Source: an uncultured Anaerolineales bacterium
GTDB lineage: Bacteria > Chloroflexota > Anaerolineae > B4-G1
DNA: 64,000 nucleotides
NCBI GenBank assembly: GCA_964444825.1
Contig: CAYUIS010000003.1
Coordinates: 5,088-69,087 of the forward strand
Reading direction: 5' to 3'
Shown here one piece after another: positions 17,063 to 60,156 of the stretch (position 1 is the first letter of the stretch; each line of letters starts with the position of its first letter). The translations under genes were made by a program, and so were the position numbers. The notes under the pieces were generated by a model, which saw only the letters and a program-made list of their open reading frames with translations, was not told where the DNA came from and made no database searches.

Positions 17063-17071
17063 GAGGTTAAC

Positions 17072-17887
17072 ATGAGTGACTATTTGATGCGTGACGACGC
17101 TCCCTTGAGCGTCAAGGAATGGGAGCGGCTGGACGAAATGGTGATCTTGGCAGCTCGACGTGTGCTGGTGGGTCGCCGGTTTATCAGTCTGGCCGGACCG
17201 CTCGGTTTTGGGACACAGGTGGTGCCACTGGACAAGGTCGAGGGCAGCGGCGCATGCCGCCACGATGCCGGCACCTGCACCGAAGATGATGTGGTACACG
17301 TCACTGGGCGTCAGTTCATCCCCATGACGCTCATCCACAAGGATTTCTTCTTGGCCTGGCGTGATGTCGAGGCCGCCCATCAATCCGGCGCAGGGCTTGG
17401 ACTGGGTCCGGCTGCGGCCGCCGCCGTCCGCGTGGCCCGGGCCGAGGACGAGATGATCTTCCAAGCGCTCCTGAATGCGGAAGGAAGGCAGACCGCGTCC
17501 CTAAAGAACTGGGAAACCTCTGGCAACGCGCTGATGAACGTCGTTGAAGCCCGTCAGGCCCTGGCCGATGCTGGCTTCTACGCCCCGTATGCTTTGGTCG
17601 TGAGCACCGGTCTGTATGCGGATCTCCAGCGCGTCTACAAGGGCTCTGGTCGACAGGAGCAGAAACTGGTGAGCAACATCGTTGATGGTGGCATCTTCCA
17701 ATCACCAGTGCTGGCTCCAAAGCAGGCGCTGATGATCTCCCAAGGCCCCCATCATCTGGATTTGGCGGTGGGGCAAGACATGGTCACCGCTTACCTGGGG
17801 CCAGAGGAAATGGATCACCGGTTCCGGGTGCTGGAGACTCTGGTTCTACGAGTCAAGCAGCCCGGAGCCGTTTGTGTTTTCGAATAA
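17072..17887 (+). CDS. enc: Encapsulin nanocompartment shell protein, family 1 (HK97 fold, linocin M18-like)
   Basis: A 271-aa protein that aligns along its whole length with T. maritima / M. xanthus encapsulins: N-terminus LSVKEWERLDE...LVGRRFISLAGPLGFG, mid YALVVSTGLYADLQ, C-terminus LAVGQDMVTAYLGPEEMDHRFRVLETLVLRVKQPGAVCVFE. Confidence 0.85.
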   Translation: MSDYLMRDDAPLSVKEWERLDEMVILAARRVLVGRRFISLAGPLGFGTQVVPLDKVEGSGACRHDAGTCTEDDVVHVTGRQFIPMTLIHKDFFLAWRDVEAAHQSGAGLGLGPAAAAAVRVARAEDEMIFQALLNAEGRQTASLKNWETSGNALMNVVEARQALADAGFYAPYALVVSTGLYADLQRVYKGSGRQEQKLVSNIVDGGIFQSPVLAPKQALMISQGPHHLDLAVGQDMVTAYLGPEEMDHRFRVLETLVLRVKQPGAVCVFE

Positions 17888-43089: not shown

Positions 43090-43260
43090 CCGTTTCCTAT
43101 TGTTTTTGGCCTACAGCACCAAAGGCAACCTCATCGCCACGGTGCACCCACTATGACCTGGCACACAGTATAAAGCAAGCTTGCGCAAACGTCAAAGCAC
43201 AGCAGCTTGTGATTTTGCCCACTTGACAGGGTAAACTGCTCAGTGTATAATGCGAATGCT

Positions 43261-43283
43261 CGATAATCGATAATCGATAATCA
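43261..43283. repeat. Tandem heptamer repeat (CGATAAT)x3 in the 500-bp leader upstream of the PEP-utilizing enzyme gene
   Basis: Read directly: cgataatcgataatcgataatc. Confidence 0.6.
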
Positions 43284-43585: not shown

Positions 43586-45283
43586 ATGACAGATCCAAAT
43601 GAGGTTCTAGGCACATTTTTCGGCGACGATGAATTCCCGGTCGAGTGGGAAAGCGAGGAAGAGAAGAGTCTGTTCTGGTTCTATGACGACAACCATTGCC
43701 CCCGTCCGATCTCGCCCATGTTCTGGAGCTTGAATGGCTGGTGGGGACCGACGCTGGATTATATGTACCGGCGTTTTGGCTTCCCCCTCGGCAAGGCGTG
43801 GATCGGCAAGCGCGTCAACGGCTACCTGTACAGCGCCATCGTGCCACGCGAGGCCGAGTCGGCAGGTATGCTTGGCCCATACTATATGTGGATCATGTCC
43901 ACCTACGCCAGCAATTTCCTGGACTGGTGGAATGACCGCTATCTGCCCGAAATCGCCCGCAACTTTGAATACCTGGACACCTACCCCACCGAGGAAGCCT
44001 CTCTTCAGGAATTGATGGTCTATCTGGAGGAAGCCATCGACATCCAGGAGCGGCACTTTCGTCTGCACTGGATCCTGAACCTGGCCCAATTCCAGTCCTC
44101 GATGGACCTCCAAGCGGCCGTGGGCGAGGTCGTCGGCGAGGTGGATCCCGCCCTCGTCGGTCGGATCTTGATCTCAATCAAGGACCGCAACTGGGACAGC
44201 CTGGATGCTCTTTGGAAGCTCAAGGAACAGGTGAAAGCCGATTCAGAGTTGAAGGCGACCTTTGAGGCTGGGGAAACCGCATCCGTCATCATACCCGAGC
44301 TGGAAAAGAGCGAAAAGGGCAAAGCCTTCTTGGCGGATGTGGAAGCCTACTGCAAAGAGTACGGCGTCAAGCCCTCATTGTACCCCCACGAATACGTCAA
44401 CAAGCTGTGGGTCGAGGACTTTACACCCGCCGTCGAGACAGTCAAGGGCTACCTGGCTGCCGATTACGACTTTCCTTCCGAGTACCAGCATATGGTGGAC
44501 GACCACTATGCGGCCATCGAGGAACTCAAGGCATTGGTGCCTGATACAGCTTCGCCTGAGCAACGGGAGAAACTGGAAACCGCCGTCGAACTGGCCACCC
44601 GTATGATGCCCCTCACTCCCGACCACCACTTCTACATGGATCAGGGCACATTCTCCCGAATGCGCCTCGTCCTGCTGGCGGTCGCCCGCCGCATGGTCAA
44701 AGAAGGACTGCTAAAGGACGCAGAGGACATCATGTTCCTGGAGTACGATCAGTTGCGCGCCTATGTGGCCAACCCTGATGGCTATGACGGTCAGGCCGTG
44801 ATCAAGGCTGGGCGCGGCGCCTACGACAAGGCACACCAGATTCGCCCGCGCGGCTGGGTCGGTACCGTGACCCACTGGGCGATGTACGAAGAGCCCTACC
44901 ACACCCTCTGGGGCTGGCCCCAGCGCTGGGAACGCGCCCAGGCAGGCGAAGATGTGATCGAGGGGGTGGTGAAAGGTCTTCCGGCCGCGGCTGGCGTCGT
45001 GGAAGGCGTCGCCCGGGTGGTAGTTGGGACCGAGGACTTTGACAAAGTGAAGCGCGGCGACATCCTGGTCTGCATCATGACCAACCCAGCCTGGGTGGTG
45101 CTCTTTAGCAAGGTCAAGGGCGTGGTCACCGACACCGGGGGCGTGCTGTGCCACACGGCCGTCGTGGCGCGCGAGTTCGGTATCCCGGGCGTGGTGGGAA
45201 CCGGCGACGCGACCCATCGCATCAAGACGGGCGATCACATCCGCGTGAACGGCAGCACCGGCATCGTCGACATCTTGGCTTAG
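43586..45283 (+). CDS. PEP-utilizing enzyme family protein, phenylphosphate synthase PpsA-like (substrate-binding region + C-terminal phospho-histidine mobile domain)
   Basis: The C-terminal PEP-utilizers domain reads GDILVCIMTNPAWVVLFSKVKGVVTDTGGVLCHTAVVAREFGIPGVVG and carries the conserved catalytic His. It lacks the N-terminal ATP-grasp (PPDK_N) domain, which is encoded separately at 52827. Confidence 0.7.
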   Translation: MTDPNEVLGTFFGDDEFPVEWESEEEKSLFWFYDDNHCPRPISPMFWSLNGWWGPTLDYMYRRFGFPLGKAWIGKRVNGYLYSAIVPREAESAGMLGPYYMWIMSTYASNFLDWWNDRYLPEIARNFEYLDTYPTEEASLQELMVYLEEAIDIQERHFRLHWILNLAQFQSSMDLQAAVGEVVGEVDPALVGRILISIKDRNWDSLDALWKLKEQVKADSELKATFEAGETASVIIPELEKSEKGKAFLADVEAYCKEYGVKPSLYPHEYVNKLWVEDFTPAVETVKGYLAADYDFPSEYQHMVDDHYAAIEELKALVPDTASPEQREKLETAVELATRMMPLTPDHHFYMDQGTFSRMRLVLLAVARRMVKEGLLKDAEDIMFLEYDQLRAYVANPDGYDGQAVIKAGRGAYDKAHQIRPRGWVGTVTHWAMYEEPYHTLWGWPQRWERAQAGEDVIEGVVKGLPAAAGVVEGVARVVVGTEDFDKVKRGDILVCIMTNPAWVVLFSKVKGVVTDTGGVLCHTAVVAREFGIPGVVGTGDATHRIKTGDHIRVNGSTGIVDILA

Positions 45284-45398
45284 GAATAGGATTCGAACCC
45301 AGCTTTTTCGGTCCTTACACGCAGAATGGGTCTGGGGAGAACCAGTGCCCCGGACCCATGTTTTGGACGGATGGGTTCCTTATGAAAGGTCACAGACT

Positions 45399-47276
45399 AT
45401 GAAATCAGGATACACAGGGAAGGTACTACAGATCGATCTGAGCGATGGAACAGTCGACGTGGAACCGTTGGACGAAACCTTTGCCAAGACCTACATCGGC
45501 GGGCGGGGCTTTACGTCGAGGCTGCAATACGACCTCATCCCCAAACAAGTCGACCCCCTCGGACCGGAGAACGTGCTGATCATCGCGCCCGGTGCGTTGA
45601 CGGGCACGTCGGCGCCCTCTGCCGCACGGTTCGTCGTGGCCGGACGATCCCCGCTGACCGGGATCCTTGGGGATGCCAACTCGGGTGGATTCTTTGGCGC
45701 GATGCTCAAGCGGGCCAGTTACAGTCTCGTCCTGATCCGTGGCCAATCGCCACACCCGGTCTACCTCAAGATCGACGACGACGAGGTGGAGCTGCGGGAT
45801 GCACGCCATCTGTGGGGCAAGGACGTGCACGAGACCACCGACGCCATCCAGGCGGAAGGGCGAGGATTCCACGTCGCCGCTATCGGTCAGGCCGGCGAAA
45901 ACCTGGTCCGCATAGCGGCGATCATCGCCGACAAAGATCACGCTGCGGCGCGGACCGGCCTGGGGGCCGTGATGGGCGCCAAGCGGTTGAAGGCCATTGC
46001 TGTGAGATCGAGGAAAGACTTTCCCTACCGTGACCGGACTGCTTTCAAGGAACTGGTTGACGAGCTACTAGAGATCGAGCGAAATGACAGGCGGGCTCGG
46101 GACTTTTCTGCGCGTGGGACGCTTGGCACGCTGATGGACCATCACTCGGCCATCGGAGCGATGAACACGCGTAACTATCAGTATGGTCAGTTCGAAGGTA
46201 AGGAACAGATCGATGGTCAAGCCCTCTCGGCGGAGTACCTGGTGCGGACGACCGGTTGCTACCGCTGTTCGTTGCGGGCCGACCGGTATTGTCGGGTGGA
46301 AAACGGCGAATTCGCCGGCGTCGAGGTCGGTGGACCCGAGTACAGCACAGCCGTGGCCCTGGGTTCGGGCGTGGGGGTCGACCACATCCCCGCGATCCTC
46401 AAGGGCAACGACCTAGCCAACCGGTATGGACTGGACACAATAGACCTGGGGGGCGTGATAGCCTTCAGCATGGAGCTGTATCAGCGAGGTATCCTCAGCA
46501 AAGAGGAGGCCGACGGCCTGGATCTGACGTGGGGCAACTACCACGCGATGCTAGATTTGATCGAGCGCATTGCCTTCCGGGAGGGGCCCTTTGCCGACCT
46601 GCTGGCCAACGGCGTACAAATGGCGGCACAGGAAATCGGGCGCGGTGCGGAGCGGTATGCGGTGCACGTTAAAGGTATGACCCCTGCGCCACTCGACGCA
46701 CGCCCCGTCAAGGTCTACAACTTTCGCTATGCGGTCTCACCCCGAGGCGCCGACCACCTGCGCATCTCCTGTCCGGGCGGCTATGCCCTGGACGAGCTTC
46801 CAATCCTTGAGGCGGCGGAGAAGCTGCGATACTGGCAGGGCATCATCGCCGTCCCGGATCTGATGGGGGTGTGCAAATTCGCCTACACATACTACACCGA
46901 GACGCCGGACGTCGCCATGCACAGGACGCTTGACATCGTTCCCCGGCTCTACACAGCAGCCACCGGGCTCGAGCTCACACGTGATGAACTGCTCGACACC
47001 GCCGCTCGGGTCACCAATATCGAGCGCGCCCACAACTGCAGGTTGGGTCTAACCGCTGCCGACGACACGCTGCCGCCGCGTTTCACACAAGACCCGATGC
47101 CTGCCGGGCCTTCCAAGGGCAAGGTGTACGACATCTTGGAGCCGATGAAAGAAGCGTGGTACACGGTTCAGGGTTGGAACACGGAGACCGGAATACCGAA
47201 ACGTGATCGGCTAGAGGAACTGGGGATTGGAGACATCGCCGACGATCTAGAACATCACGGTGTAGACATTTCCTAG
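45399..47276 (+). CDS. Aldehyde:ferredoxin oxidoreductase family (tungstopterin) enzyme, copy 1
   Basis: The N-terminal AOR_N domain aligns with P. furiosus AOR (GKVLQIDLSDGTVDVEPLDE..YIGGRGF...VDPLGPENVLIIAPGALTGTSAPSAARF.VAGRSPLTG...ANSGGFFG). The full length is about 626 aa. Confidence 0.85.
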   Translation: MKSGYTGKVLQIDLSDGTVDVEPLDETFAKTYIGGRGFTSRLQYDLIPKQVDPLGPENVLIIAPGALTGTSAPSAARFVVAGRSPLTGILGDANSGGFFGAMLKRASYSLVLIRGQSPHPVYLKIDDDEVELRDARHLWGKDVHETTDAIQAEGRGFHVAAIGQAGENLVRIAAIIADKDHAAARTGLGAVMGAKRLKAIAVRSRKDFPYRDRTAFKELVDELLEIERNDRRARDFSARGTLGTLMDHHSAIGAMNTRNYQYGQFEGKEQIDGQALSAEYLVRTTGCYRCSLRADRYCRVENGEFAGVEVGGPEYSTAVALGSGVGVDHIPAILKGNDLANRYGLDTIDLGGVIAFSMELYQRGILSKEEADGLDLTWGNYHAMLDLIERIAFREGPFADLLANGVQMAAQEIGRGAERYAVHVKGMTPAPLDARPVKVYNFRYAVSPRGADHLRISCPGGYALDELPILEAAEKLRYWQGIIAVPDLMGVCKFAYTYYTETPDVAMHRTLDIVPRLYTAATGLELTRDELLDTAARVTNIERAHNCRLGLTAADDTLPPRFTQDPMPAGPSKGKVYDILEPMKEAWYTVQGWNTETGIPKRDRLEELGIGDIADDLEHHGVDIS

Positions 47277-47295
47277 CACAAGGTGGACAACGCCA

Positions 47296-47709
47296 ATGAA
47301 ACGTATCTATGTGATCGAAGATCTTTGCAATGGGTGCCGGCTGTGCGAGACGTTCTGTTCGTCGCTGGCTGACGGGGTGTTCGACGTGGCCTATTCATCC
47401 TCGGATCGGACACGGGCCCGGGTCAGGGTGATCAAGATCCCTGGAGAGGAAAAGGACATCCCCATAGTAGATTGTGATGGCCGATGCGTACGTCCACTGA
47501 ACAGCGACGGCGGCCCAACCTGCGTCGCCGTATGCCCAACTGGCGCTCTGATCTACGCGGAACAGGAAAACGCCGTCGCCAAGCGCCTGGCGTTGGAGGA
47601 GGCCAGAGAGGCACACGGCCTGTTCAAGGTGATCGCCCCCTGGAAGTGGCCCCTGCCCTGGCGAAAGCCTGAGACGACCCGAGGCAACAGCGGCGGAGAA
47701 GGTGCATGA
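47296..47709 (+). CDS. 2[4Fe-4S] ferredoxin-like protein (AOR electron-transfer partner)
   Basis: CNGCRLCETFC and CDGRC...CVAVCPTGAL Cys clusters. It is translationally coupled to the second AOR (ATGATG overlap at 47706). Confidence 0.7.
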   Translation: MKRIYVIEDLCNGCRLCETFCSSLADGVFDVAYSSSDRTRARVRVIKIPGEEKDIPIVDCDGRCVRPLNSDGGPTCVAVCPTGALIYAEQENAVAKRLALEEAREAHGLFKVIAPWKWPLPWRKPETTRGNSGGEGA

Positions 47710-49655
47710 TGGCGCGAGATAACAAGGTTCAAACAATCCTGCGGGTGGATCTATCCACCGGCAGCAGTCACCTGGAGGATCTTCCGGAGGAATGGACGCG
47801 CAAGTATCTCGGCTGCCGGGGGATCAACGCACGGCTGCTGTTTGACGAGGTTCGACCCGACACGGATCCACTGGGACCTGACAACGTGCTTTTCTTTGGC
47901 ACCGGCCCGATGGATGGTGTGCCGATCGGCATGGGGCGCATGTCGGTGGCCTGCAAGTCGCCTCGGGGCAGCGTAGCGGAGGGGAGCTTTGGTGGATTCT
48001 TTGGCCCCGAGATGCGGAGAGCCGGTGTTGACTACGTGGCGATTCGAGGTAAGGCAGATCACCCGATCTACCTAAGCATCGAGGACGGAACAGTCGAGAT
48101 TCGAGACGCCACTCACCTGTGGGGCCTCAAGACAGACGAGACAGACGCAGCACTCCATCGTGAGTTCTCCGATCCAAACGTCCAGCTCCGCTACATCGGC
48201 CCTGCCGCTGAGAACCTGGTGCATGCCAGCCCCATCTTTGGGAACCTCAACAACAGCGGGGGGCGTGCCGGGTGTGGTCAGGTGATGGGCAGCAAGCGGC
48301 TGAAAGCCATCGCCGCACGCGGATCGCAAGGGATTCGAGTTGCCGATTACGACGCCTTCCTGGAAGCCTACAAAGTACTAAGGCAGCGGTTGGATTTGGC
48401 AACGTCGCGGGATATGTGGACACCGGTCTGGTCCACCTACGGCGCGCCTGTGCTGGCCCGGCTGTTCCCCGACCTGGGCAACCTGATGACGCGCAACGCT
48501 CAGGAGATGAGCTGGGATTATGATAAAGCCATGCGCATCTCCGGTGAGCCCTACCTCGACGACTATGTCACCAAGGCAAAGGCCTGCTACTGCTGCCCGT
48601 GGCCCGCCTGTCAGAAGTTACACCAGATCAAATCGGGCAAGTACCAGGGCTTTAAGGGCGGCAACTACTGGGCTGCCCAGCCGGTAGCGTTTGGGTCGCT
48701 GATCGACAATGACGATCTGGATTTGATCCTGGTGATGTCCGGGCTGTGCAACCAATATGGACTGGACGTCTTTCACGTCGGCTACACGCTGGCTTGGGCG
48801 ATGGAGTGTTTTGAAAATGGCATACTGACCGAGACGGACACGGACGGGCTGGAACTCCGGTTCGGTTGCCCGGACAAGGACGGTCTGGTCGATCTGATCC
48901 GCAAGATTGCCCTACGGGAGGGTTTTGGCGATCTGCTGGCACAGGGGTGCGCCGAGGCCGCCAAGATCGTGGGCCAGGACTCCGAGCGGTTCTGCCTGTC
49001 GGTGAAGGGCCAGGAGCTGGAGGGGATTCCCCAGCGGAACCTCTACATGGTGGCTCTGGGCATCGCTGTGAGCGAGGTAGGCCCTGATCACACACGCTGG
49101 TATCCGCCCTATCCCTGCAATCCCGGCCTCATCTCGAAGGAAGAGCTGGCAGAACTCGGTATCGATCTGGACCTGCGGCTGGCGTTCCAGGGGCGTAACC
49201 CGGAACAAAAGGGGAGATTGCTGCGCTGGTTCACTATCAGCCGGGCCGTCGTGGAAAGCATGCCCAGTTGCGTGTTCCTGGTGCGGGATACCCTGGGGCT
49301 GGACATGCGGCCCTGGTGGAATTTGTTCAACGCGGCGACCGGGGCTGATCTGGACTATGCCGAGTTCATCTTGGCGGGCGAGCGGCTCATGAACCTGGAT
49401 CGGGCGTTCAACGTACGTGAGGGATACCGTCGGGCCGACGACCGTCCTCCGATCCGAATGTCCACCGAGGATGTGCCTGGCTTTGGATACCCCAAGCTGG
49501 CTCCAGAGGTGTTTGAGCCGATGTTGGACGAATACTATGAGGCAAATGGGTGGAGCGCGGACACATCGATTCCAACACGTGGTAAACTGGAGGAACTGGG
49601 AATAAGCGACGTGGCCGACGAGCTCGACGCATTGGGAATCGAGGTGGCACAATGA
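47706..49655 (+). CDS. Aldehyde:ferredoxin oxidoreductase family (tungstopterin) enzyme, copy 2
   Basis: The same AOR_N/AOR_C architecture (TILRVDLSTGSSHLEDLPEE..YLGCRGINARLL...DPLGPDNVLFFGTGPMDGVP...). It is 649 aa and diverges from copy 1. Confidence 0.85.
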   Translation: MMARDNKVQTILRVDLSTGSSHLEDLPEEWTRKYLGCRGINARLLFDEVRPDTDPLGPDNVLFFGTGPMDGVPIGMGRMSVACKSPRGSVAEGSFGGFFGPEMRRAGVDYVAIRGKADHPIYLSIEDGTVEIRDATHLWGLKTDETDAALHREFSDPNVQLRYIGPAAENLVHASPIFGNLNNSGGRAGCGQVMGSKRLKAIAARGSQGIRVADYDAFLEAYKVLRQRLDLATSRDMWTPVWSTYGAPVLARLFPDLGNLMTRNAQEMSWDYDKAMRISGEPYLDDYVTKAKACYCCPWPACQKLHQIKSGKYQGFKGGNYWAAQPVAFGSLIDNDDLDLILVMSGLCNQYGLDVFHVGYTLAWAMECFENGILTETDTDGLELRFGCPDKDGLVDLIRKIALREGFGDLLAQGCAEAAKIVGQDSERFCLSVKGQELEGIPQRNLYMVALGIAVSEVGPDHTRWYPPYPCNPGLISKEELAELGIDLDLRLAFQGRNPEQKGRLLRWFTISRAVVESMPSCVFLVRDTLGLDMRPWWNLFNAATGADLDYAEFILAGERLMNLDRAFNVREGYRRADDRPPIRMSTEDVPGFGYPKLAPEVFEPMLDEYYEANGWSADTSIPTRGKLEELGISDVADELDALGIEVAQ

Positions 49656-49924
49656 AGCACCTCCAATTGCGATACGTCGCCCACGTCACGACACTTACCA
49701 GCGCTCTCCAGGAGAGCCACCAAACGGAGGTGGCCACTTTGCGGGAATTAGTAGACGAGTTGGATCTAGCGTATGGTGGATTTCGCAAGTTGTTTGTGAA
49801 TCCCGAAACCAGACAGTTGAATCTTAATACGATGATCTACTACAGCGATCCAGGCGAGGTCCCGATCTCGGTCATAAACCTGGATCACCCGGTGAGCGAT
49901 GGCGGAACCGTCACATTCTGGTAA
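49652..49924 (+). CDS. MoaD/ThiS-like beta-grasp small protein (lacks the C-terminal Gly-Gly)
   Basis: Alignable by eye to MoaD (RYVAHVTTLTS ~ RYFARLRELTG; TLRELVDELDLAYGGFRKLFV ~ TVRDLLEALAERYPELRELLF). It ends ...VSDGGTVTFW, without a free GG terminus. It overlaps the AOR stop. Confidence 0.4.
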   Translation: MKHLQLRYVAHVTTLTSALQESHQTEVATLRELVDELDLAYGGFRKLFVNPETRQLNLNTMIYYSDPGEVPISVINLDHPVSDGGTVTFW

Positions 49925-49936
49925 AAGGAGCAAACA

Positions 49937-50656
49937 ATGACAAAACTGATTGATCTGAGCATGGAAGTGAGCGGGGATATGGTGGTCTTTCCTCGGGTGG
50001 CTCGCCCGATCATGGCGATGCTGGAAAGCTGGGAGGAGTTTGCCAGCAACATCGGTGCGGCCGAGTATGGCACCACCTGGCTGACGGCCCACTATGTCGT
50101 CGTCCTGGGGGATCACGTGGGCACTCACGTAGACTCGTTGAGGCATATGCGTGACGATGCCCCTGGCCCCGATGGGATTCCCCTGGAGTACTGTTACGGC
50201 GACGGCGTCGTCCTCGATTTCAGCGACAAACCGGTCGGCTATGGCATCACCGCCGAGGATTGCCAGAAAGAGCTGGGCCGCATCGGCTACACCCTCAAGC
50301 CACTGGACATCGTCCTCATCAAGACCGGGGCGGGGCGCTACAACACCGAGCTGCGCTACCTGACCGATCACTGCGGTATGACGGGCGAATCGACCAATTG
50401 GCTCATCGACCAGGGGATCAAGATGGTGGGCATTGATGCGGTCACCTGGGACCGCCCGGTCAAATCGATGTTCGAGACAAAAGAGTTCTGGCCGGCGCAC
50501 CAGGTAATGATAGAGCGGGAGTACTATCACCTGGAGAACATGGCCAACCTGGACGCCATCCCGGTACCGTTTGGATTCAAGGTTTCTGTCTTTCCCATCA
50601 AGTGGAAGGGCACGACGGCTGCGCCTGTACGCGCCGTGGCTATGCTGGAAGATTAG
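49937..50656 (+). CDS. Cyclase-family protein (kynurenine formamidase-like metal-dependent hydrolase)
   Basis: The HxGTHxDxxxH motif (DHVGTHVDSLRH) is characteristic of the putative-cyclase / formamidase family. Confidence 0.7.
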   Translation: MTKLIDLSMEVSGDMVVFPRVARPIMAMLESWEEFASNIGAAEYGTTWLTAHYVVVLGDHVGTHVDSLRHMRDDAPGPDGIPLEYCYGDGVVLDFSDKPVGYGITAEDCQKELGRIGYTLKPLDIVLIKTGAGRYNTELRYLTDHCGMTGESTNWLIDQGIKMVGIDAVTWDRPVKSMFETKEFWPAHQVMIEREYYHLENMANLDAIPVPFGFKVSVFPIKWKGTTAAPVRAVAMLED

Positions 50657-50671
50657 GAGCAGTTTCGGCCT

Positions 50672-51898
50672 ATGACGTGCCATGTGGCCATCTTGGGCTC
50701 ACTGGACACAAAAGGGCTGGAGGTAGACTTTCTTCGGCATGTGGTCCGCGCCGAAGGGGGGCAGCCGCTCGTGGTTGACACCGGCGTCCTGGACAAGCCC
50801 ACCACGGCTGCCGACGTCACCCGGCACGAGGTGGCCCTTGCGGCAGACACTAGCATCGAAGCGCTGATCCAGCAGGGCAACAAGGCGTATGCGCTGGTGA
50901 CTATGGCTGAAGGCGCCAGCGCTATTCTGCTCAAGCTGTTCCAGGCGGGGCAGTTGGGAGGCGTGCTGTCGATCGGAGGCTCCCGGGGCACGGCCCTGAG
51001 CACTCGCGTGATGCAATCTCTGCCGGTGGGTTTACCCAAGCTGATGGTCTCTACTATGGCCAGCGGTCACAATCCCTTTGGGCCTTATGTCGGCACAAGG
51101 GACATCACCCTGATGCACTCGGTGGCGGACGTGCAGGGCATCAACGCTGTGACGCGGCCGATCTTTACCAACGCCGCAGCGGCCATCGTCGCGATGAGCC
51201 GCGTTGGTACGCCGGTTCAGCGCGGAGAGAAGCGGGTACTGACAGCCTCGATGCTCGGCGTAACAACCACGTTGGTGGGGCAGATTCAGGCGCTGATGGA
51301 CCCGGAAAGGAATGAGGTCATCGCGTTTCACGCCGTCGGTACCGGTGGGCGGGCGATGGAAGAGCTGATCGACAGCGGCCTGGTCGAAGGGGTGTTTGAC
51401 GTCACTCCAGGGGAGATGACTCAGTTCATAGTGCAAGGTTCGTTTTCCGCCGGCCCAGACCGGATGAAGGCGGCTGGACGGCGAGGCATTCCCCAGGTCA
51501 TCGCCCCTGGCGGCCTTGATTTTATCATCGAAGGGTCACTGGACGAATTGCCGGCCGAGTATCAAGATCGTAGGACGATGGTCCACACGCCCACGATCAC
51601 GCTGGTGCGTACATCGCCTGAGGAGATGGCGGCTGTGGCGCGCCTGATTGCGGAGCGACTGGCTGAATCCGCTGGGCCGGCAGCGATGATCCTTCCGCTA
51701 CGTGCCTTTGGCTGGTTTGCAAGGGAGGGACAGCCGCTGCACGATCCCGAGTCAGACCGGGCCTTTGTCGAGACGTTCAAAGCCCACGCGCCAGCGCAGG
51801 TCAGGATCGTCGAGATGGACACGCACCTGAACGACCCGGAGGTGGGCAAGATGGCGATCCAACTGATGCACGAGATGCTGGAGCAGGGGACCAGATAG
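50672..51898 (+). CDS. UPF0261 family protein (Tm-1 N-terminal-like domain)
   Basis: The N-terminus reads CHVAILGSLDTKGLEVDFLRHVV...PLVVDTGV, resembling the UPF0261 signature (GTxDTKxxEL...V.D.G). No characterised function is known. Confidence 0.5.
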   Translation: MTCHVAILGSLDTKGLEVDFLRHVVRAEGGQPLVVDTGVLDKPTTAADVTRHEVALAADTSIEALIQQGNKAYALVTMAEGASAILLKLFQAGQLGGVLSIGGSRGTALSTRVMQSLPVGLPKLMVSTMASGHNPFGPYVGTRDITLMHSVADVQGINAVTRPIFTNAAAAIVAMSRVGTPVQRGEKRVLTASMLGVTTTLVGQIQALMDPERNEVIAFHAVGTGGRAMEELIDSGLVEGVFDVTPGEMTQFIVQGSFSAGPDRMKAAGRRGIPQVIAPGGLDFIIEGSLDELPAEYQDRRTMVHTPTITLVRTSPEEMAAVARLIAERLAESAGPAAMILPLRAFGWFAREGQPLHDPESDRAFVETFKAHAPAQVRIVEMDTHLNDPEVGKMAIQLMHEMLEQGTR

Positions 51899-52018
51899 GA
51901 GCAAGACGCCGCGATGCAGGTTCACGTGCAGCCTTTCTCTTTCCTGCGAGATGCACTCAATCACACTCCCGACGTCGGTCTGGAGAACAATCACGAATAG
52001 ACGTGGTATTGCCGGAGG

Positions 52019-52813
52019 TTGACAACTATGACTTTGTTTGACGCTTATCTGAATCTATACAATCTGAAGGACAAGGTGGCCCTGGTGGCCGGAGGCGGAG
52101 GTGGCATCGGCAGCGCCATCTCCGAAGGGCTGGCCGCCTACGGCGCAACCGTCATCGTATGTGATCAGGCCAGGGCGAAGGCCGAGAAGGTGGCAGCCGG
52201 GATCGAGGCTGCCGGCGGCCAGGCATGGGGCACGGAACTGGACATACTCGACTTTGAGGCTGTGCGCCGCTTCATGGGTCAGGTAATCAAGCGCTATGGT
52301 CGCCTGGACATACTGGTGAACTGTGTAGGCACGCACAAGGAGGCCCCGGCCGAGGACTATGCCGAGGACGACTGGGATCGGGTGCTCGACCTCAACCTGA
52401 AAGCGGCCTTCTTCCTGTCCCAGGCGGTCGCCAGGGTACAGTTGCCACAAGGAGGGGGCAAACATGTCCATATCACCTCCGTTCGCAGTATGCTGGGCAT
52501 CCGCCGGGGTTACGTGGCCTACTGTTCCAGCAAGGGGGCTATGAACCTGATGATCAAACAACTGGCGACCGAATGGGCCAAGTACAACATCACGGTCAAT
52601 GGCATCGCCCCGACGTTTACGCGCACCGAGCTGGTAAAGGATTACCTGGAGGACCCCGACTTTTACAACCCTTTGGTAGCCCGCATCCCGCTGGGACGCA
52701 TCTGCGAGCCGATCGACCTGGCGGCACTGGCGATCTATCTGGCAGCGCCTGCCTCTGACTTTATCACCGGGCAGATCATCTTTGCCGATGGTGGTGTGAC
52801 AGCAACCCAATAA
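52019..52813 (+). CDS. Short-chain dehydrogenase/reductase (SDR)
   Basis: TGxxxGIG cofactor loop (VALVAGGGGGIGSAISEGL), NCVG, and the catalytic S...YxxxK (YCSSKGAM). Confidence 0.8.
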   Translation: MTTMTLFDAYLNLYNLKDKVALVAGGGGGIGSAISEGLAAYGATVIVCDQARAKAEKVAAGIEAAGGQAWGTELDILDFEAVRRFMGQVIKRYGRLDILVNCVGTHKEAPAEDYAEDDWDRVLDLNLKAAFFLSQAVARVQLPQGGGKHVHITSVRSMLGIRRGYVAYCSSKGAMNLMIKQLATEWAKYNITVNGIAPTFTRTELVKDYLEDPDFYNPLVARIPLGRICEPIDLAALAIYLAAPASDFITGQIIFADGGVTATQ

Positions 52814-52826
52814 GGAACAGCCGATC

Positions 52827-53780
52827 ATGTCGGATAAATCGTGTGTGTTGTTTGGCGAGATATGTCGCAAAGATGTATCAGTGGCTGGAGGCAAAGGGGC
52901 CAACCTCGGGGATATGGTTCAGGCCAATCTCCCCGTTCCGCCTGGTTTTGTCATCTGCGCCCCGGCCTACCGGGAGGTGGTGCAGCGTTGTGACCTGACA
53001 ACCAGGATCGAAGGGATGTTAGCAGGTGTGGATCACGGCGATAGCGCACAACTCCAGGCGGTCGAAGGGCAGATCCGCGAACTGTTCGAGGACATCCCGA
53101 TTGCGGGTGAACTGCACCACGTGATCGTGGAACGGTACCGCGCCCTGGGTGAAAACGTGCCGGTGGCGGTTCGATCGAGCGCCACCGCCGAGGATCTGGC
53201 CGGAGCCAGCTTTGCCGGACAGCAGGAGACGTTCCTGAACGTGGTAGGCGAGGTGGAACTGCTCGACGCGGTGCGTCGATGCTGGTCCTCCCTCTACACC
53301 TCCCGGGCCATCTTTTACCGGCAACAGAGAGGCTTTGGCGATGTCGAGGTCTCGATGGCCGTGGTTGTCCAAAAGATGGTCAACTCGGAAAAGTCCGGTG
53401 TCATCTTTACGGTAGATCCCGTCTTTCGTAACCATTATCACATGGTGATCGAGGCGGTCTGGGGCCTGGGTGAGGGCGTAGTATCAGGCGCAATCACCCC
53501 CGATCACTACAAGTTGGACCGGGAGACATACGAGATCGTTTACGAATTCGTGCCCGAAAAGCGAATCATGTTCTGCCAGGGTGACGATTGCGGCATTATC
53601 GAGATGGATGTACCGTCCGACAAGGTAACGATGCGCATCCTCACGGATGCTGAGCTACAACAACTGGTGGACATGGGCAACAAGATCGAGCAACACTTTG
53701 GCTGCCCTCAGGATATCGAATGGGGTATCGAGAACGACGACATCTATCTCCTCCAGAGCCGGCCAATCACGAATCTGTAG
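52827..53780 (+). CDS. PEP synthase/PPDK N-terminal ATP-grasp (nucleotide-binding) domain protein, phenylphosphate synthase PpsB-like
   Basis: PPDK_N motifs: VAGGKGANLGDM, VAVRSSATAEDLAGASFAGQQETFLNV, IEWGIENDDIYLLQSRPIT. No His-swivel domain (317 aa). Confidence 0.7.
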   Translation: MSDKSCVLFGEICRKDVSVAGGKGANLGDMVQANLPVPPGFVICAPAYREVVQRCDLTTRIEGMLAGVDHGDSAQLQAVEGQIRELFEDIPIAGELHHVIVERYRALGENVPVAVRSSATAEDLAGASFAGQQETFLNVVGEVELLDAVRRCWSSLYTSRAIFYRQQRGFGDVEVSMAVVVQKMVNSEKSGVIFTVDPVFRNHYHMVIEAVWGLGEGVVSGAITPDHYKLDRETYEIVYEFVPEKRIMFCQGDDCGIIEMDVPSDKVTMRILTDAELQQLVDMGNKIEQHFGCPQDIEWGIENDDIYLLQSRPITNL

Positions 53781-53794
53781 AGGATGAACCCATC

Positions 53795-54307
53795 ATGACC
53801 GATTTCATCGAGTTTGACAGCTTTCTGCAGCGAGCCTGCGAACTTGGAGCCATTGAGGCCAAGATCATCGACCCTGACAGCATCGTGATTGCTGCGTGGG
53901 TCAGGCTAAAGTGCCAGTTTGGCTGTCCGCACTACAATACGCGCCATTACTGTCCACCGCATACACCCACCCCAGAGCAGATGAAGTCTGTCATCGATTG
54001 CTACTCGGTCGCGCTCCTGTTTCACAGTCTGGGCATGGAAATCAGTCCCCTGAACCTGGCGTACGAGTTGGAGCGTGAAATCTTTCTCAGCGGGTACCAC
54101 AAGGCGCTTGGTTTTGGCGCTGGACCGTGCTGGCTGTGCAAGAAATGCAACCCTGAGAGCTGCATACATCCCTTGGAGGCTCGCCCTTCGATGGAAGCAT
54201 GCGGCATCGACGTGTATGCTACCGTCCGTGCCCACGGATTTCCCATTCAGGTCGTGAGAGACCGGTCCGAGGTGCCCAATCGCTACGGTCTGATCCTGAT
54301 CGAATAG
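53795..54307 (+). CDS. DUF2284-like predicted metal-binding protein
   Basis: Cys-rich pattern CQFGCPHYNTRHYCPP ... GPCWLCKKCNPESC ... ACG. Confidence 0.4.
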   Translation: MTDFIEFDSFLQRACELGAIEAKIIDPDSIVIAAWVRLKCQFGCPHYNTRHYCPPHTPTPEQMKSVIDCYSVALLFHSLGMEISPLNLAYELEREIFLSGYHKALGFGAGPCWLCKKCNPESCIHPLEARPSMEACGIDVYATVRAHGFPIQVVRDRSEVPNRYGLILIE

Positions 54308-54373: not shown

Positions 54374-55255
54374 ATGCTGCTATTGAGTGAAGAATTCGCT
54401 TCTGGTGAAGCACGTTTGCGCGTGGACGTGCACGGCTCCGGACCGTTGGAGCACGTCCTAGATGATATGACCTTCCTAAACTATCGCCTCGCCAGCGTGG
54501 AGGTTGTAGCCGAGCCGACCAGCCAAGCACCCCACCTGGTCTGGCACCGGGACGCGTCCCAGAAGAGCATCCGCTACGAGGATCAGACGCTCATCCTGGC
54601 AGGAGACTGGTTCCAGGGCGAGCTGCAAAAGATCATCGTCTCTGCACTGGCGCTCCAGATGGAGAAGGTTGGTTTGCATCCTTTCCATTCTTCGGCCGTG
54701 CGCTATCGGGACCGCACGATTATGTTTATGAGCGGTGAGGCCAATCACGGCAAAACAATGTGCCAGATCGAAGGGTGCCGGCGCGGAGGCTTGGTCGTCT
54801 CCACCGAGACCACCGTGACCGACGAGCGCGGCTGGGCGGTGATGGGTTCCAAGAACGTCTTTTTGAAGAAACGGGCCAAAGGGACCGAGCGCGCCGATAT
54901 CCCCGACGCCCAAAAAGGGGCTGCCAAGTTCTTTGATGAGACCCCCACGTTCGTCAACTATGAGAAGCCTAGCGACGTTGATTTGGTTATCCTGCCCGCC
55001 ATCGACGGCAACTTTGACACCCAGGTGGTAGAGATGACCCCATTCGAAAAAGAGTATCAGACCTACCATTCACTGGCAAACTACTTTGGCCTGGCGCAAC
55101 TGCTGGCCTCGGGTCACCCGATGCCCATGATCGACACCGACGATCTGCGAATCGCGCGCGCCGACTTTTGTTTTCGCTTTGCCAAACGTACCTACACCCT
55201 GATCCGGGCCAAGAACCCGCAGCTCTTGTTGGACGAGGTGGAGAAACTGGCGTAA
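54374..55255 (+). CDS. HPr kinase C-terminal-domain-like P-loop protein (putative small-molecule/protein kinase)
   Basis: HSSAVRYRDRTIMFMSGEANHGKTMCQIEGCRRGGLVVSTETTV resembles the HprK/P C-domain (GxSGxGKSE...RGH.LVADD) by eye. The assignment is weak. Confidence 0.35.
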   Translation: MLLLSEEFASGEARLRVDVHGSGPLEHVLDDMTFLNYRLASVEVVAEPTSQAPHLVWHRDASQKSIRYEDQTLILAGDWFQGELQKIIVSALALQMEKVGLHPFHSSAVRYRDRTIMFMSGEANHGKTMCQIEGCRRGGLVVSTETTVTDERGWAVMGSKNVFLKKRAKGTERADIPDAQKGAAKFFDETPTFVNYEKPSDVDLVILPAIDGNFDTQVVEMTPFEKEYQTYHSLANYFGLAQLLASGHPMPMIDTDDLRIARADFCFRFAKRTYTLIRAKNPQLLLDEVEKLA

Positions 55256-55317: not shown

Positions 55318-56010
55318 GTGAACTCTGTACGCACACCGCGGAATTCCGAGACGGATGAAGCCCTACTATCGCGCGTCGTACTCAGTGACCAGGTCAAGGA
55401 ATTCATCATAGACGCGATCATGAGCGGCGAGTTCAAGCCTGGGGATCGCGTCGTCGAAAGCTCTCTGGCGCGCCAGCTGGGCGTCAGCCAGGCTCCAGTG
55501 CGCGAGGCGATCCGTGACCTGGTGTTACTGGGCTTTCTAGCGACAGAACCTTACAAGGGCACCTCGGTACGCTCTTTCTCTCCCGAGGAACTGTGGGAGG
55601 TCTACACCGTGCGTGCGGCCCTGGAATCGCTAGGGGCTCGTTTGGCAGCCTCTCGCCTGACCGAGGCGAATGCGGAGACGCTGCGCGAAATCCTGGACCA
55701 GATGGTTGATGCCGGTCGAAAGCACGACTTTGATCGAATGACGCAACTGGACAATGATTTTCACGGGACGATCATGCAGGTCTCGGGCAACATGCTGTTG
55801 TATCAACTGTGGCAGACGCTACGGTTTGGATATTGGACCATCGTCACTGCAAAAATGTCCAGCTTCGATCTGGAGCACCTGGCCGTCCGTCACGAAGAGC
55901 TGCTGGACGCCCTCAAGTCACGTGATCCTGAAAAGGCATCGCACGTTATGCAACACCACATCGAAGACCTGGGCAAACCACCAACGAATATAGAGGCCGA
56001 AAATGAATGA
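55318..56010 (+). CDS. GntR-family transcriptional regulator (FadR/FCD subfamily)
   Basis: The N-terminal wHTH reads VVESSLARQLGVSQAPVREAIRDLVLLGFL. The C-terminal FCD domain has His ligands. The start is GTG. Confidence 0.8.
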   Translation: MNSVRTPRNSETDEALLSRVVLSDQVKEFIIDAIMSGEFKPGDRVVESSLARQLGVSQAPVREAIRDLVLLGFLATEPYKGTSVRSFSPEELWEVYTVRAALESLGARLAASRLTEANAETLREILDQMVDAGRKHDFDRMTQLDNDFHGTIMQVSGNMLLYQLWQTLRFGYWTIVTAKMSSFDLEHLAVRHEELLDALKSRDPEKASHVMQHHIEDLGKPPTNIEAENE

Positions 56011-56497
56011 GCAGCAAGCTGTCGAGCAGGCACGCGCCACCTTTATCACCGAGGACAATATCCACGGCTGCGCCGAGACCACGCTCATGGTCCTGCAACA
56101 GGCCTATGGCTTGCCCGCTGCCACCGACTCGTCGCCGGCGATGGCCCTGAACGGCGGCGTGGCCTGGAGCGGCGGTTGCTGTGGCGCGATTACCGGGGCA
56201 GCCATGGCGGTAGGCCGCCTGGCCGCCCAACGGATCGCCGACCACAAGGAGGCCAAAAGGACTGCCCGCAGCATCATCATACACCTGATGGATGATTTCC
56301 GCGTCGCGTATGGCCACGTCAACTGCCAGGACCTGGTCGGCCTGGACATCTCATCCGAGGAAGGGCATGCCGCGTTCATCGAGGGACAGGTTTGGCATAC
56401 CGTCTGTATGGACCAGATCGAGTTCGCTCTCCGCAAACTGGTGGCGCTCCAGGACGACCAGGTCTGGCAGGAAACGATTCGTCAGTTCCGGACCTAG
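56003..56497 (+). CDS. C_GCAxxG_C_C family redox-active protein (second copy)
   Basis: HGCAETTLMVLQ ... GGCCGAITGAAMAVG ... CQDL. Confidence 0.6.
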   Translation: MNEQQAVEQARATFITEDNIHGCAETTLMVLQQAYGLPAATDSSPAMALNGGVAWSGGCCGAITGAAMAVGRLAAQRIADHKEAKRTARSIIIHLMDDFRVAYGHVNCQDLVGLDISSEEGHAAFIEGQVWHTVCMDQIEFALRKLVALQDDQVWQETIRQFRT

Positions 56498-56542: not shown

Positions 56543-57910
56543 ATGCCTTTTGAGATCACCATGCCCCAATTGGGGCTGACCATGGAAACAGGGATTGTTG
56601 TCGAATGGTTGGTCAAAGAGGGGGAGCAGATTTCACCAGGCCAGGAAATCCTTGACGTCGAAACAGACAAATCTGTCGTCGCCGTCGAGGCTCGCCAGGC
56701 GGGGACCATCGCCCGTATCCTGGTGCTGCCTGGACAGGACGTGCCGGTGGGAACGGTCCTTGCGGTCGGCGTTAGCCCTGGCGAATCCCTGCCCGCCGAG
56801 TGGCAACCCGACCAGCCCGCTATGCCATCGACGCCCGCGCCCAAGCCAGTTACCCAAGGTAACCAGACGCCAGCGACTCGGGCTTTTTCCCGAGCCGGCC
56901 CCCAGCAAGTATCCTGGAAAGCCCGCAGGATGGCCCACGAGGCCGGCTTGGATCTGACAGGAGTGAACGGCAGCGGACCTGGTGGCCGGATCGTGGCCAA
57001 GGATGTAGCCCAGGCTTTGGCAACGCCGCCCGTGGAAGAACCAGCGCCGGCCAGTGTCTCCCCAGTTGCTGCCCAACTAGCGAGCACCTTGGGCTTGGAC
57101 CTGCAGCACGTGGCAGGCAGTGGCCCTGAAGGACAGATTAGACAAACTGACGTGATCGCCGCTGCGGCTGCGGTGATTCAAGGGCGGGCAGGCCCTGGCC
57201 CGAGCCCAACCCACGGACCGGCGCAGGTGGCAAAGACCATCCCGCTCACCGGCATCCGTGGCACCGTCTCCAGGCGTATGGCGGTCAGTGGTAGCACGAC
57301 GGCCCGCGTGACGCTCCTGCGGGAGGTAGACGCGACCGCGCTGATCGAACTCCGCGAGCGGTTTGTCGCGCGTCTCCAGGACACGCGGGTCTCGTATAAC
57401 GACATCCTGATTCGGATCTGCGCGGCGGTACTGCGTGAACATCCCGGCGCGAACGCGCGGATGGGCGACGGACAGATCGAGTGGCTTGATCAGATCAACG
57501 TCGGTCTTGCGGTAGACACGGACCAGGGCTTGTTGGTGCCGGTGGTCTACAATGCGGACACGCTGACCATTCCACAGATAGCCGCCAGAAGCGCCAGCTT
57601 AATCGAGGCTGCCCGTTCGGGTCGCTGCCTCCCCGACGAACTCACGGGAGGCACGTTCACGATCACGAACCTGGGAATGTTCAGGGTCGAGGGGTTCACG
57701 CCGGTGATCAACCTGCCAGAGTGCTGTATCTTGGGCGTGGGGTGTTTCGTACGCAAGCCGGTGGTCGTGGACGAACATGATACGGTGGCTGTACGGCCAA
57801 TGATGGCCCTCAGCCTCGCATTCGATCATCGGGTCATTGATGGCGCTGCTGCGGCCCGTTTCCTGGATGACATCGCGCAACTGATCCAGGACCCGTTGTT
57901 GTTGCTGTAA
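56543..57910 (+). CDS. Dihydrolipoamide acyltransferase (E2) of a 2-oxoacid/acetoin dehydrogenase complex
   Basis: The lipoyl domain carries DVETDKSV. The PSBD reads PAARKLAHEAGLDL-like (ARRMAHEAGLDLTGVNGSGPGGRIVAKDV). The catalytic domain ends in DHRVIDGA. Confidence 0.85.
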   Translation: MPFEITMPQLGLTMETGIVVEWLVKEGEQISPGQEILDVETDKSVVAVEARQAGTIARILVLPGQDVPVGTVLAVGVSPGESLPAEWQPDQPAMPSTPAPKPVTQGNQTPATRAFSRAGPQQVSWKARRMAHEAGLDLTGVNGSGPGGRIVAKDVAQALATPPVEEPAPASVSPVAAQLASTLGLDLQHVAGSGPEGQIRQTDVIAAAAAVIQGRAGPGPSPTHGPAQVAKTIPLTGIRGTVSRRMAVSGSTTARVTLLREVDATALIELRERFVARLQDTRVSYNDILIRICAAVLREHPGANARMGDGQIEWLDQINVGLAVDTDQGLLVPVVYNADTLTIPQIAARSASLIEAARSGRCLPDELTGGTFTITNLGMFRVEGFTPVINLPECCILGVGCFVRKPVVVDEHDTVAVRPMMALSLAFDHRVIDGAAAARFLDDIAQLIQDPLLLL

Positions 57911-58105
57911 CTAGCTTCACAATGTCACATGTCACATTTCATCAAGATGCCCGTTCTTGCTCAAAGGGGATCGTCAGATCCCCGTCTCAGGCGCTGAGCA
58001 TGCTGCACAGAGCCGAAATCTGGCGATCCCTGGCGAGCGACGAGAAATGATCACCGAATGTGACATTGTCAAGGGATGGCCGTTATTCACACAGGCAGAG
58101 GAGTT

Positions 58106-59134: not shown

Positions 59135-59148
59135 GGAGAGAAAAGAGT

Positions 59149-60135: not shown

Positions 60136-60156
60136 AAAAAGAGCAGGGAGGATCAG

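Follow-up and report, generated by a model that had tools for sequence, protein, structure and literature searches.

A conserved operon, found mainly in Chloroflexota, that probably encodes a two-component dikinase of the rifampin phosphotransferase type

Two genes, here called A and B, lie in a stretch of 64,000 nucleotides (hereafter the window) from an uncultured Anaerolineales bacterium (assembly GCA_964444825.1, contig CAYUIS010000003.1, positions 5,088 to 69,087). A sequence-only reading of this DNA described them as the halves of a split phosphoenolpyruvate (PEP) synthase-like dikinase resembling phenylphosphate synthase PpsA/PpsB, separated by 7.5 kb. The comparative evidence presented below supports the view that A and B are cognate partners, and we consider it probable that together they make up a single two-component, ATP-dependent dikinase for a small molecule, of the type represented by rifampin phosphotransferase (RPH), PpsAB, CreHI and HpeHI. 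The cluster in which they reside comprises the following features.

43223-43251 (+): candidate operon promoter, TTGACA-17-TATAAT, a 12/12 match to the sigma-70 consensus (a match to consensus only)
43586-45283 (+): A, dikinase component with an RPH-like substrate-binding domain and a C-terminal phospho-histidine swivel domain (Pfam, NCBIfam, AlphaFold2/Foldseek)
45345-47276 (+): AOR1, tungsten-type aldehyde:ferredoxin oxidoreductase (AOR; AFOR_N and AFOR_C matches)
47296-47709 (+): small ferredoxin-like 4Fe-4S protein (weak Fer4 family matches)
47706-49655 (+): AOR2, a paralogue of AOR1 (Pfam)
49652-49924 (+): 90-residue open reading frame (ORF), possibly MoaD/ThiS-like (weak match to TIGR01687 moaD_arch, E 0.007, and to nothing else)
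49937-50656 (+): cyclase-family (PF04199) metal-dependent hydrolase (Pfam)
50672-51898 (+): UPF0261 protein, MarK-like (ADP-forming kinase family; Pfam, NCBIfam, PDB 9mpy)
52019-52813 (+): short-chain dehydrogenase (SDR; nearest models gluconate 5-dehydrogenase and glucose 1-dehydrogenase)
52827-53780 (+): B, free-standing ATP-grasp (PPDK_N) dikinase component (Pfam, NCBIfam, PDB matches)
53720-54307 (+): DUF2284 predicted metal-binding protein (Pfam)
54374-55255 (+): p293, a half-size P-loop protein of 293 residues from the PEP carboxykinase (PEPCK)/HprK superfamily (fold match, conserved context)
55318-56010 (+): GntR/FCD transcriptional regulator (Pfam, NCBIfam)
56003-56497 (+): C_GCAxxG_C_C redox protein (Pfam; membership of the system uncertain)
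56543-60135 (+): pyruvate dehydrogenase (PDH)-type E2, E1-alpha and E1-beta (Pfam, NCBIfam; membership possible, not established)

The ORF list reveals that the genes from A to the PDH-type E1-beta form a tight, entirely co-directional series, in which most intergenic gaps measure 4-66 nt and larger ones of 120 and 165 nt lie 5' of the SDR gene and between E2 and E1-alpha, respectively; GAPDH-like and PGK genes come after the PDH-type genes. A and B are parts of a single co-directional operon that begins near 43.2 kb and reaches 56 kb or beyond, and the genes between them are present as the sequence-only reading had listed them. The longest DUF2284 ORF overlaps the end of B by 61 nt (53720-53780), and the true start of this gene is probably located downstream of the overlap. 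DUF2284 was undetected in every related locus searched.

Both dikinase ORFs are present at the coordinates given above. A encodes a protein of 565 residues (64.2 kDa) in which our Pfam search recognized a sole domain, the PEP-utilizers mobile (swivel) domain (residues 489-559, E 1.5e-24); neither PPDK_N nor PEP-utilizers_C was found by this search, consistent with the earlier description of A as a swivel half that lacks an ATP-grasp. In precomputed Pfam annotations, the database protein identical to A and all close homologues have PF27448 ('Rph_4th') besides PF00391, and these close homologues are annotated as Anaerolineae or Chloroflexota metagenome-assembled genomes (MAGs). More than 2,500 database proteins match A at E<=1e-5, a count that takes in other dikinase families. 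Among the NCBIfam models, the whole of A aligns to the ~600-residue PRK08296 models, and its C-terminal two-thirds align to the RPH, PigC/RedH and PRK06241 'PEP synthase' models, in all cases well under the cut-off. When the AlphaFold2 model of A (pLDDT 81.5) was searched with Foldseek, RPH was the only full-length match in the PDB (~600 columns, E 6e-21, TMq 0.66-0.68, 20% identity), whereas pyruvate, phosphate dikinase (PPDK), enzyme I and pyruvate kinase match in the swivel domain alone. Published work describes the same pattern for HpeH, for which RPH is the only full-length structural match and all others are limited to the swivel (PMC12167813).

The swivel domain of A carries the sequence T515-D-T-G-G-V-L-C-H523, which fits the T/SxxGGxxxH motif of two-component dikinases (PMC12167813) and identifies His523 as the predicted catalytic residue. 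H523, G518 and G519 are invariant, with H523 retained in 13 diverse and 29 close homologues, and the alignment reveals many other conserved polar and aromatic residues. The residue two positions before the histidine is Leu (GGVLCH), as opposed to the regulatory Thr of PEP synthase and PPDK.

B encodes 317 residues (35.1 kDa), and Pfam places PPDK_N over residues 19-316 (E 4.6e-103) with no second domain, in agreement with its earlier description as a free-standing ATP-grasp protein. Its matches in the PDB include an archaeal-type PEP synthase (8a8e, 266 bits), HpeI (9goj, 210 bits) and RPH's ATP-grasp domain (203-205 bits). Judged by these scores, B appears slightly nearer to the ATP-grasp domains of true PEP synthases than to HpeI. 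It nevertheless falls under the cut-offs of the PEP synthase models NF005057 (353 versus 598) and TIGR01418 (341 versus 740), and A scores 98 on the latter. Domain architecture, the RPH-like model and the swivel motif all agree with the reading of A and B as a two-polypeptide dikinase.

Two-component dikinases are known to act on phenol (PpsAB), 4-methylphenol (CreHI) and hydroxyphenylethanones (HpeHI and AcvAB); their large subunits HpeH, CreH and PpsA are about 45% identical to each other, and they work by way of a beta-phospho-His (PMC12167813, PMC9618137). A name for the subfamily dates from 2025 (PMC12167813), and all of its characterised members initiate the degradation of phenolic compounds. 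The system in the window shares with them the separate ATP-grasp polypeptide, the second chain composed of an RPH-like substrate domain and a C-terminal swivel, the T/SxxGGxxxH motif with a catalytic His ~40 residues before the C-terminus, the lack of a regulatory Thr, the presence of both genes in one operon, and RPH as the sole solved structure that aligns with the whole large subunit. The sequence-only reading took the two-chain form as the organisation known for PpsAB. The architecture does match, but it is shared by CreHI, HpeHI and AcvAB, and the resemblance of A to PpsA is distant.

Given this architecture and motif, together with an anaerobic host and the use of PpsAB by anaerobic phenol degraders (PMC12167813, PMC9618137), one could suppose that A and B are in fact phenylphosphate synthase (phenol + ATP -> phenylphosphate + AMP + Pi), with the carboxylase gene located in another part of the genome. 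We judge this to be very unlikely. A scores 166 bits on PRK08296.1-5 against a cut-off of 578, and together with other members of its orthologous group (defined below) it spans 166-196 bits, whereas homologues that lie beside a B gene in Pusillimonas, Pseudonocardia and a gammaproteobacterial MAG score 776-821 bits. On the basis of length and taxa, we infer that PRK08296 represents the PpsA/HpeH type. The identity of A to large subunits of the PRK08296 type is only 23-30%, to be compared with the ~45% among HpeH, CreH and PpsA, and A is ~45-70 residues shorter (565 versus ~610-640, the latter lengths being deduced from catalytic-His positions and a mass of 71 kDa; PMC12167813).

The surroundings of the two genes differ as well. 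As had been reported earlier, no UbiD phenylphosphate carboxylase is present among the window ORFs of at least 400 residues that were run through Pfam. One ORF of this size (59563-60894, - strand) was left unscanned; it runs opposite to E1-beta and the GAPDH-like gene, in antisense, and appears to be spurious. Nor did we see a PpsC-like gene with a CBS domain in the window, and no UbiX turned up in it, with small ORFs checked in part only. The window cluster is also without the UbiD-type or biotin carboxylase, P450 and NagD-type phosphatase of the known systems, and its A and B genes are separated by eight genes by our count. Instead, the cluster includes a tungsten AOR or, in relatives, a molybdenum hydroxylase, a cyclase-family hydrolase and the PEPCK-like P-loop protein. 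These conserved neighbours, along with lactonase and transketolase/transaldolase genes found in relatives, are unlike those of pps loci. Moreover, p293, the cyclase and the Mo/AOR block are essentially absent from 47 loci that carry distant homologues of A (PRK08296-like and other): p293 occurs in none of the 47, and an AOR-like ORF is found only in L056 and L079. Thus, score, identity and neighbours all favour the earlier proposal that the substrate differs from that of the phenol/phenylphosphate system.

A split RPH-like resistance enzyme that inactivates a xenobiotic or an antibiotic was also considered, given that RPH is the nearest solved structure for A and that both A and B partially match NCBIfam RIF_Ptrans_rph. 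In fold, A corresponds to the RIF-binding and swivel domains of RPH (PDB 5HV1/5FBT), and B corresponds to its ATP-grasp domain in both fold and sequence. However, RPH is a single chain, the RIF_Ptrans_rph scores are 123 and 304 against a cut-off of 999, and the operon that contains the pair looks catabolic, is conserved across phyla and also encodes oxidoreductases, hydrolases and a regulator of the metabolite type. HpeH is equally similar to RPH and yet is catabolic (PMC12167813). We therefore regard a resistance function as extremely improbable. In our assessment, the pair is a two-component RPH-type dikinase rather than a phenylphosphate synthase, a PEP synthase or RPH itself, and the orthologous group of A appears from its sequences to be a distinct, uncharacterised branch of these dikinases. 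A literature search found no publications that describe this cluster.

The proposed partnership between A and B was assessed using 80 genomic loci encoding relatives of A, from 80% down to 23% identity, whose six-frame ORFs were scanned with the window proteins. Relatives of ~40% identity or more form one orthologous group of 35 loci. Its members come from Anaerolineae, Caldilineae, Chloroflexia, Limnocylindria, Thermomicrobium, Thermogemmatispora, several Actinomycetota and two Bacillota, and also from single MAGs that bear the labels Spirochaeta, Vicinamibacterales, Rhodobacteraceae and Desulfurococcaceae, the last of these an archaeon. A stand-alone B is encoded on the same strand and within 8 kb of A in 13 of the 35 loci. 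The two genes are directly adjacent in L010, L014, L015 and L033, where they overlap or are 9-107 nt apart; they are one gene (the cyclase) apart in L013, L021, L029 and L032; and they are 3.3-7.9 kb apart in Anaerolineae-type loci, so that among relatives overall they are either adjacent or have one to eight genes between them. This graded spacing places the 7.5-kb gap of the window at the expanded end of a range, with pathway genes lying between the subunit genes. The separation noted in the sequence-only reading is therefore real, but it is a lineage-specific gain of pathway genes within one operon, that is, ordinary operon growth and not an unusual split.

Neighbour-joining trees built from 41 loci recover the orthologous group as monophyletic for A and for B alike, and the pairwise distances of the two proteins correlate (r=0.78 overall and r=0.69 inside the orthologous group; Mantel p<0.0005). 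The phylogenetic co-occurrence of the two halves, proposed earlier as a check on their partnership, is thus observed. Within the window, A is the sole swivel gene and B the sole ATP-grasp gene. Adjacency and tree congruence together support the conclusion that A and B are partners.

Several observations weigh against this conclusion. Neighbours were assigned from six-frame ORFs and phmmer matches, which are not curated gene models. Many loci from Chloroflexia, Limnocylindria and Acidimicrobiia lack B. These B-less loci encode, a few genes away, a 750-residue protein with ATP-grasp and swivel domains that passes the NCBIfam short-PPDK model PRK05878 (498 versus 456 bits) and is without a recognisable PEP domain. 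An example is located at 11353-13623 of L019, and equivalents occur in L129, L132, L137, L140, L142, L150, L157-L159 and L161. If this short PPDK serves A, such loci would have two swivel proteins within one system. In L009, L031 and L087, no ATP-grasp was seen in the fetched flank. The pairing of A with B therefore does not hold in every locus, and p293 might donate the phosphoryl group instead.

This last possibility draws attention to p293, which the sequence-only reading had left unconnected to the system. No Pfam family covers p293 (PF01293, PEPCK_ATP, gives 18.8 versus 26.5 bits), and it scores 17 versus 590 on TIGR00224. More than 100 database relatives were recorded, all 'hypothetical protein', and ~2,900 proteins match at E<=1e-3. 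The predicted model (pLDDT 83) finds ATP-dependent PEPCK as its best Foldseek match (E 1e-8, TMq ~0.48), followed by HPr kinase (E 2e-4). A profile-to-PDB alignment sets GxWxxGE, H105-x-S-A and the P-loop G121-E-x-N-x-G-K127-[ST] of p293 over GTWYGGE, H-C-S-A and GLSGTGKT of PEPCK, such that the P-loop fold and the H-x-S-A element before the GxxxxGK[ST] loop are held in common. In contrast, p293 has 293 residues versus ~530 in PEPCK, the equivalent of the CO2-positioning Tyr is Phe, Tyr, Pro, Glu or Ala across the p293 family, and the equivalent of the Lys that serves as an Mn ligand varies between Lys and Arg. Thus, p293 is a relative within the PEPCK superfamily but not a member of the ATP-dependent PEPCKs. 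Versions of p293 from different bacterial phyla and from the archaeon share 40-58% identity, and many of their Arg residues are invariant.

When metagenomes were scanned with p293 as the query, 80 loci were recovered, 37 of them at least 8 kb in length. A, an ATP-grasp partner or both are encoded in 36 of these 37 loci, and a Mo/W enzyme in 30. This near-exclusive linkage indicates that p293 is a dedicated component of the system. Its most likely role would be a second nucleotide-dependent phosphoryl transfer that acts on the phosphorylated product or on phospho-enzyme A. A role as a PSRP/PDRP-type regulator of the swivel Thr was rejected, because A is without that Thr and p293 is not a Kinase-PPPase. 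A true Kinase-PPPase gene (PEP-synthase/PPDK regulatory protein, 311 bits) is found at 4695-5603 of L033, an Oscillospiraceae MAG, just 5' of a Mo-hydroxylase-A-B-p293 cluster.

If A and B were not partners in the window, A might be charged by p293 (ATP -> ADP) or act as a phosphotransferase between phospho-compounds, with B serving a swivel protein elsewhere. Such an arrangement would fit L009 and L031, where p293 adjoins A and no ATP-grasp lies within 10 kb, and the Chloroflexia-type loci, whose commonest core is A-GntR-p293. It would also fit the published finding that HpeH alone can move phosphate between phenolic compounds (PMC12167813), and HprK, a fold relative of p293, phosphorylates a protein. 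However, the A and B trees are congruent and their genes are repeatedly adjacent, no other swivel or ATP-grasp gene is available in the window, and the Chloroflexia loci do have an ATP-grasp in the form of the short PPDK. In addition, a B ORF ends less than 400 bp upstream of p293 in 22 of 50 p293-seeded loci, which places B in the same module. We consequently consider this arrangement unlikely.

The PEPCK-like fold of p293 also bears on whether A and B might be a split pyruvate-type dikinase that, together with p293, forms the pyruvate/PEP/oxaloacetate node of central metabolism. B has its best matches among true PEP synthases of the archaeal type, the ATP-grasp and swivel domains are common to PEP synthase and PPDK, and short PPDKs occur in the Chloroflexia relatives. 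The PDH-type, GAPDH-like and PGK genes that come after the cluster and the likeness of the FCD regulator to LldR and PdhR point in the same direction. Nonetheless, the system is divided between two proteins, A is without the PEP/pyruvate TIM barrel and matches the rifampin-binding domain of RPH instead, Leu replaces the regulatory Thr, and B falls short of the PEP synthase cut-offs. Furthermore, p293 is half as long as PEPCK, with a weak match to the Pfam family of the latter, and the cluster co-varies with catabolic enzymes. For these reasons, we assign this explanation a small chance.

We thus favour a two-component dikinase that acts on another small molecule. Although architecture and motif are observed directly, the chemistry proposed for A and B is based on characterised homologues. 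ATP would be bound by B, and the swivel domain of A would dock on B such that His523 is pyrophosphorylated and takes the beta-phosphate, while the gamma-phosphate leaves as Pi. The swivel domain would then swing back, and a small molecule bound in the helical RPH-like domain of A would accept the phosphate on a hydroxyl or enol oxygen. The net reaction would be X-OH + ATP + H2O -> X-O-P + AMP + Pi.

A more elaborate and doubtful proposal, which we consider to have a limited chance of being correct, is that A, B and p293 operate together, in the manner of a coupled PEP synthase and PEP carboxykinase, on a substrate other than pyruvate. The dikinase would make an enol- or aryl-phosphate, and p293 would pass the phosphate to ADP while carboxylating the enolate or phenolate. 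In the reverse direction, decarboxylative phosphorylation would be followed by ATP recovery via the dikinase or the short PPDK. If true, this couple would be a biotin- and UbiD-independent, ATP-recycling route of carboxylation or decarboxylation, widespread in Chloroflexota, that feeds an aldehyde- or acid-level W/Mo oxidoreductase.

Genes called in the 35 orthologous loci were clustered to determine which neighbours recur, with the following counts.

ATP-grasp partner: 26 of 35 loci
Mo-hydroxylase large subunit: 23 of 35 loci
p293: 20 of 35 loci
GntR/FCD regulator: 16 or more of 35 loci
Cyclase: 13 of 35 loci
SDR: 11 of 35 loci
AOR: 8 of 35 loci
UPF0261: 6 of 35 loci

Other recurrent neighbours are SGL lactonase, a Zn-dependent alcohol dehydrogenase (Zn-ADH) with a glucose-dehydrogenase-type C-terminus, a metallo-beta-lactamase-fold protein, transketolase (whole or split), TAL/FSA, ALDH, cupin, FAH-family hydrolase, ABM, a LIV-type ABC transporter and PDH-type E1/E2/E3. 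The E1/E2 genes adjoin the cluster in L006, L033, L086 and many Anaerolineae-type metagenome loci, and the C_GCAxxG_C_C gene recurs after GntR in Anaerolineae-type metagenome loci. The core of the recurrent cluster consists of A, an ATP-grasp partner, p293, an aldehyde-oxidising W or Mo enzyme, a metal hydrolase or lactonase, a dehydrogenase and a GntR/FCD regulator, and the operon in the window is a local, expanded version of this conserved, uncharacterised catabolic cluster.

AOR or Mo-hydroxylase genes are present in 31 of the 35 loci. AOR is characteristic of the Anaerolineae/Caldilineae-type loci and the archaeon, and the Mo-hydroxylase, accompanied by its FAD and 2Fe-2S subunits, of most other lineages. 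This exchange of W for Mo enzymes is most simply read as a shared aldehyde-to-acid step. The two are not strictly alternatives, given that L086, an Anaerolineae-type contig, carries both Mo-hydroxylase L/M/S subunits and W-AOR (1-2560 and 11807-13681) beside the same A/B/p293 cluster. AOR1 has its best PDB matches in 9mqx (E 1e-117) and 1aor (E 1e-115). An assignment of the AORs as BamB-type benzoyl-CoA reductases was rejected (395 bits to the AOR 9mqx versus 238 to BamB). We likewise did not adopt an assignment of the Mo enzyme as 4-hydroxybenzoyl-CoA reductase, because its best PDB match, 1rm6, reaches just 282 bits over 750 residues. The FAD subunit of 4-hydroxybenzoyl-CoA reductase has an extra Fe-S loop; that of the cluster Mo enzyme has 290-300 residues that are filled by two standard domains, which is a weak, length-only argument against this assignment.

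The ferredoxin-like protein is likely to be the electron-transfer partner of the AORs, and its gene is kept between two AOR genes in L005, L007, L087, L138 and L143. The 90-residue ORF is possibly a MoaD/ThiS-like protein for cofactor maturation, and ThiS-family genes occupy the equivalent position in L001 and L086. In the PDB, the cyclase best matches isatin hydrolases and kynurenine formamidase (E 2e-7 to 3e-4). The SDR scores 214.2 against a cut-off of 215 on the glucose-1-dehydrogenase model NF005559.

A kinase role for the UPF0261 protein was missed in the sequence-only reading. The protein matches PF06792 and PF23189, exceeds the cut-off of NF002674 (PRK02399.1-2; 450 versus 335 bits) and aligns over its full length with MarK (PDB 9mpy, E 7e-64). 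MarK, an ADP-forming aromatic kinase, is the first UPF0261 protein with a known activity (PMC12624787). The ATP-site residues D14-T15-K16 and the ligand-site residues G195, H219 and H304 of MarK correspond to D12-T13-K14, the Gly in MLGVTT, H220 and H305 of the window protein; the conservation of these residues exceeds 90% over all UPF0261 homologues, which makes them non-discriminating. By family criteria, the gene encodes a putative MarK-type kinase, so that with A and B the operon would encode two different kinds of small-molecule kinase. MarK replaces HpeHI in an acetovanillone operon with a biotin carboxylase, whereas the UPF0261 protein of the window coexists with the dikinase and has no adjoining carboxylase. 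In L045, a Syntrophorhabdales MAG, a distant homologue of A (28% identity) is followed by UPF0261 and then B (9890-15339), which indicates that the association between dikinase and UPF0261 also exists outside the orthologous group.

Phenol and pyruvate are unlikely substrates for the reasons given above, and our best candidate is a hydroxy-carbonyl compound with an aldehyde function that the AORs would oxidise. We slightly favour, although only tentatively, a sugar-derived ketose, aldose or lactone. The SGL lactonase, glucose-dehydrogenase-like Zn-ADH, transketolase and TAL/FSA neighbours argue for this class, as do the proximity of the SDR to the glucose-1-dehydrogenase model, the FCD regulator and the many polar and aromatic positions conserved in A. 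A phenolic aromatic aldehyde or ketone is possible but somewhat more doubtful. This class is suggested by the fact that all characterised RPH-domain enzymes have aromatic or hydrophobic substrates (PMC12167813), by the MarK-like UPF0261 protein with its conserved phenol-binding residues, by the Mo subunit whose nearest match is 4-hydroxybenzoyl-CoA reductase, by the cyclase nearest to isatin hydrolases, and by the LIV transporter, FAH, cupin and ABM neighbours. That the two classes are backed by different subsets of neighbours, neither of them decisive, must be set against any firm choice of substrate.

While the split architecture itself was already known, the widely distributed, uncharacterised branch with unusual partners, particularly the mini-PEPCK-like protein and the W/Mo oxidoreductase, is new. 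The group would show that two-component dikinase machinery has been recruited into a different conserved pathway, in Chloroflexota and several other phyla. Among the Chloroflexota are organisms, most of them uncultured, that are abundant in anaerobic digesters, sediments and soils. Identification of the substrate would give a function to thousands of proteins annotated as 'PEP-utilizing enzyme' or 'hypothetical protein', and the system could reveal a new way to handle phosphorylated intermediates.

Expression of the operon may depend on the candidate promoter, which is located ~330 nt 5' of A. Three tandem CGATAAT units (~43262-43282) lie directly after it and could serve as an operator for the GntR/FCD regulator, whose gene is kept beside A or p293 across phyla. 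The resulting leader of ~330 nt has no family matches in Rfam.

The rest of the window looks unrelated to the dikinase system. It includes a histidine biosynthesis operon, the GAPDH-like and PGK genes and an ORF of 682 residues (22934-24982) with no Pfam match at E<=1e-5. At 16103-17887, a gene that weakly matches a ferritin-like domain comes before one for an encapsulin shell (Linocin_M18, E 1.6e-62), and rubredoxin-reductase-like and flavodiiron-type genes are located nearby, such that this region looks like an oxidative-stress island.

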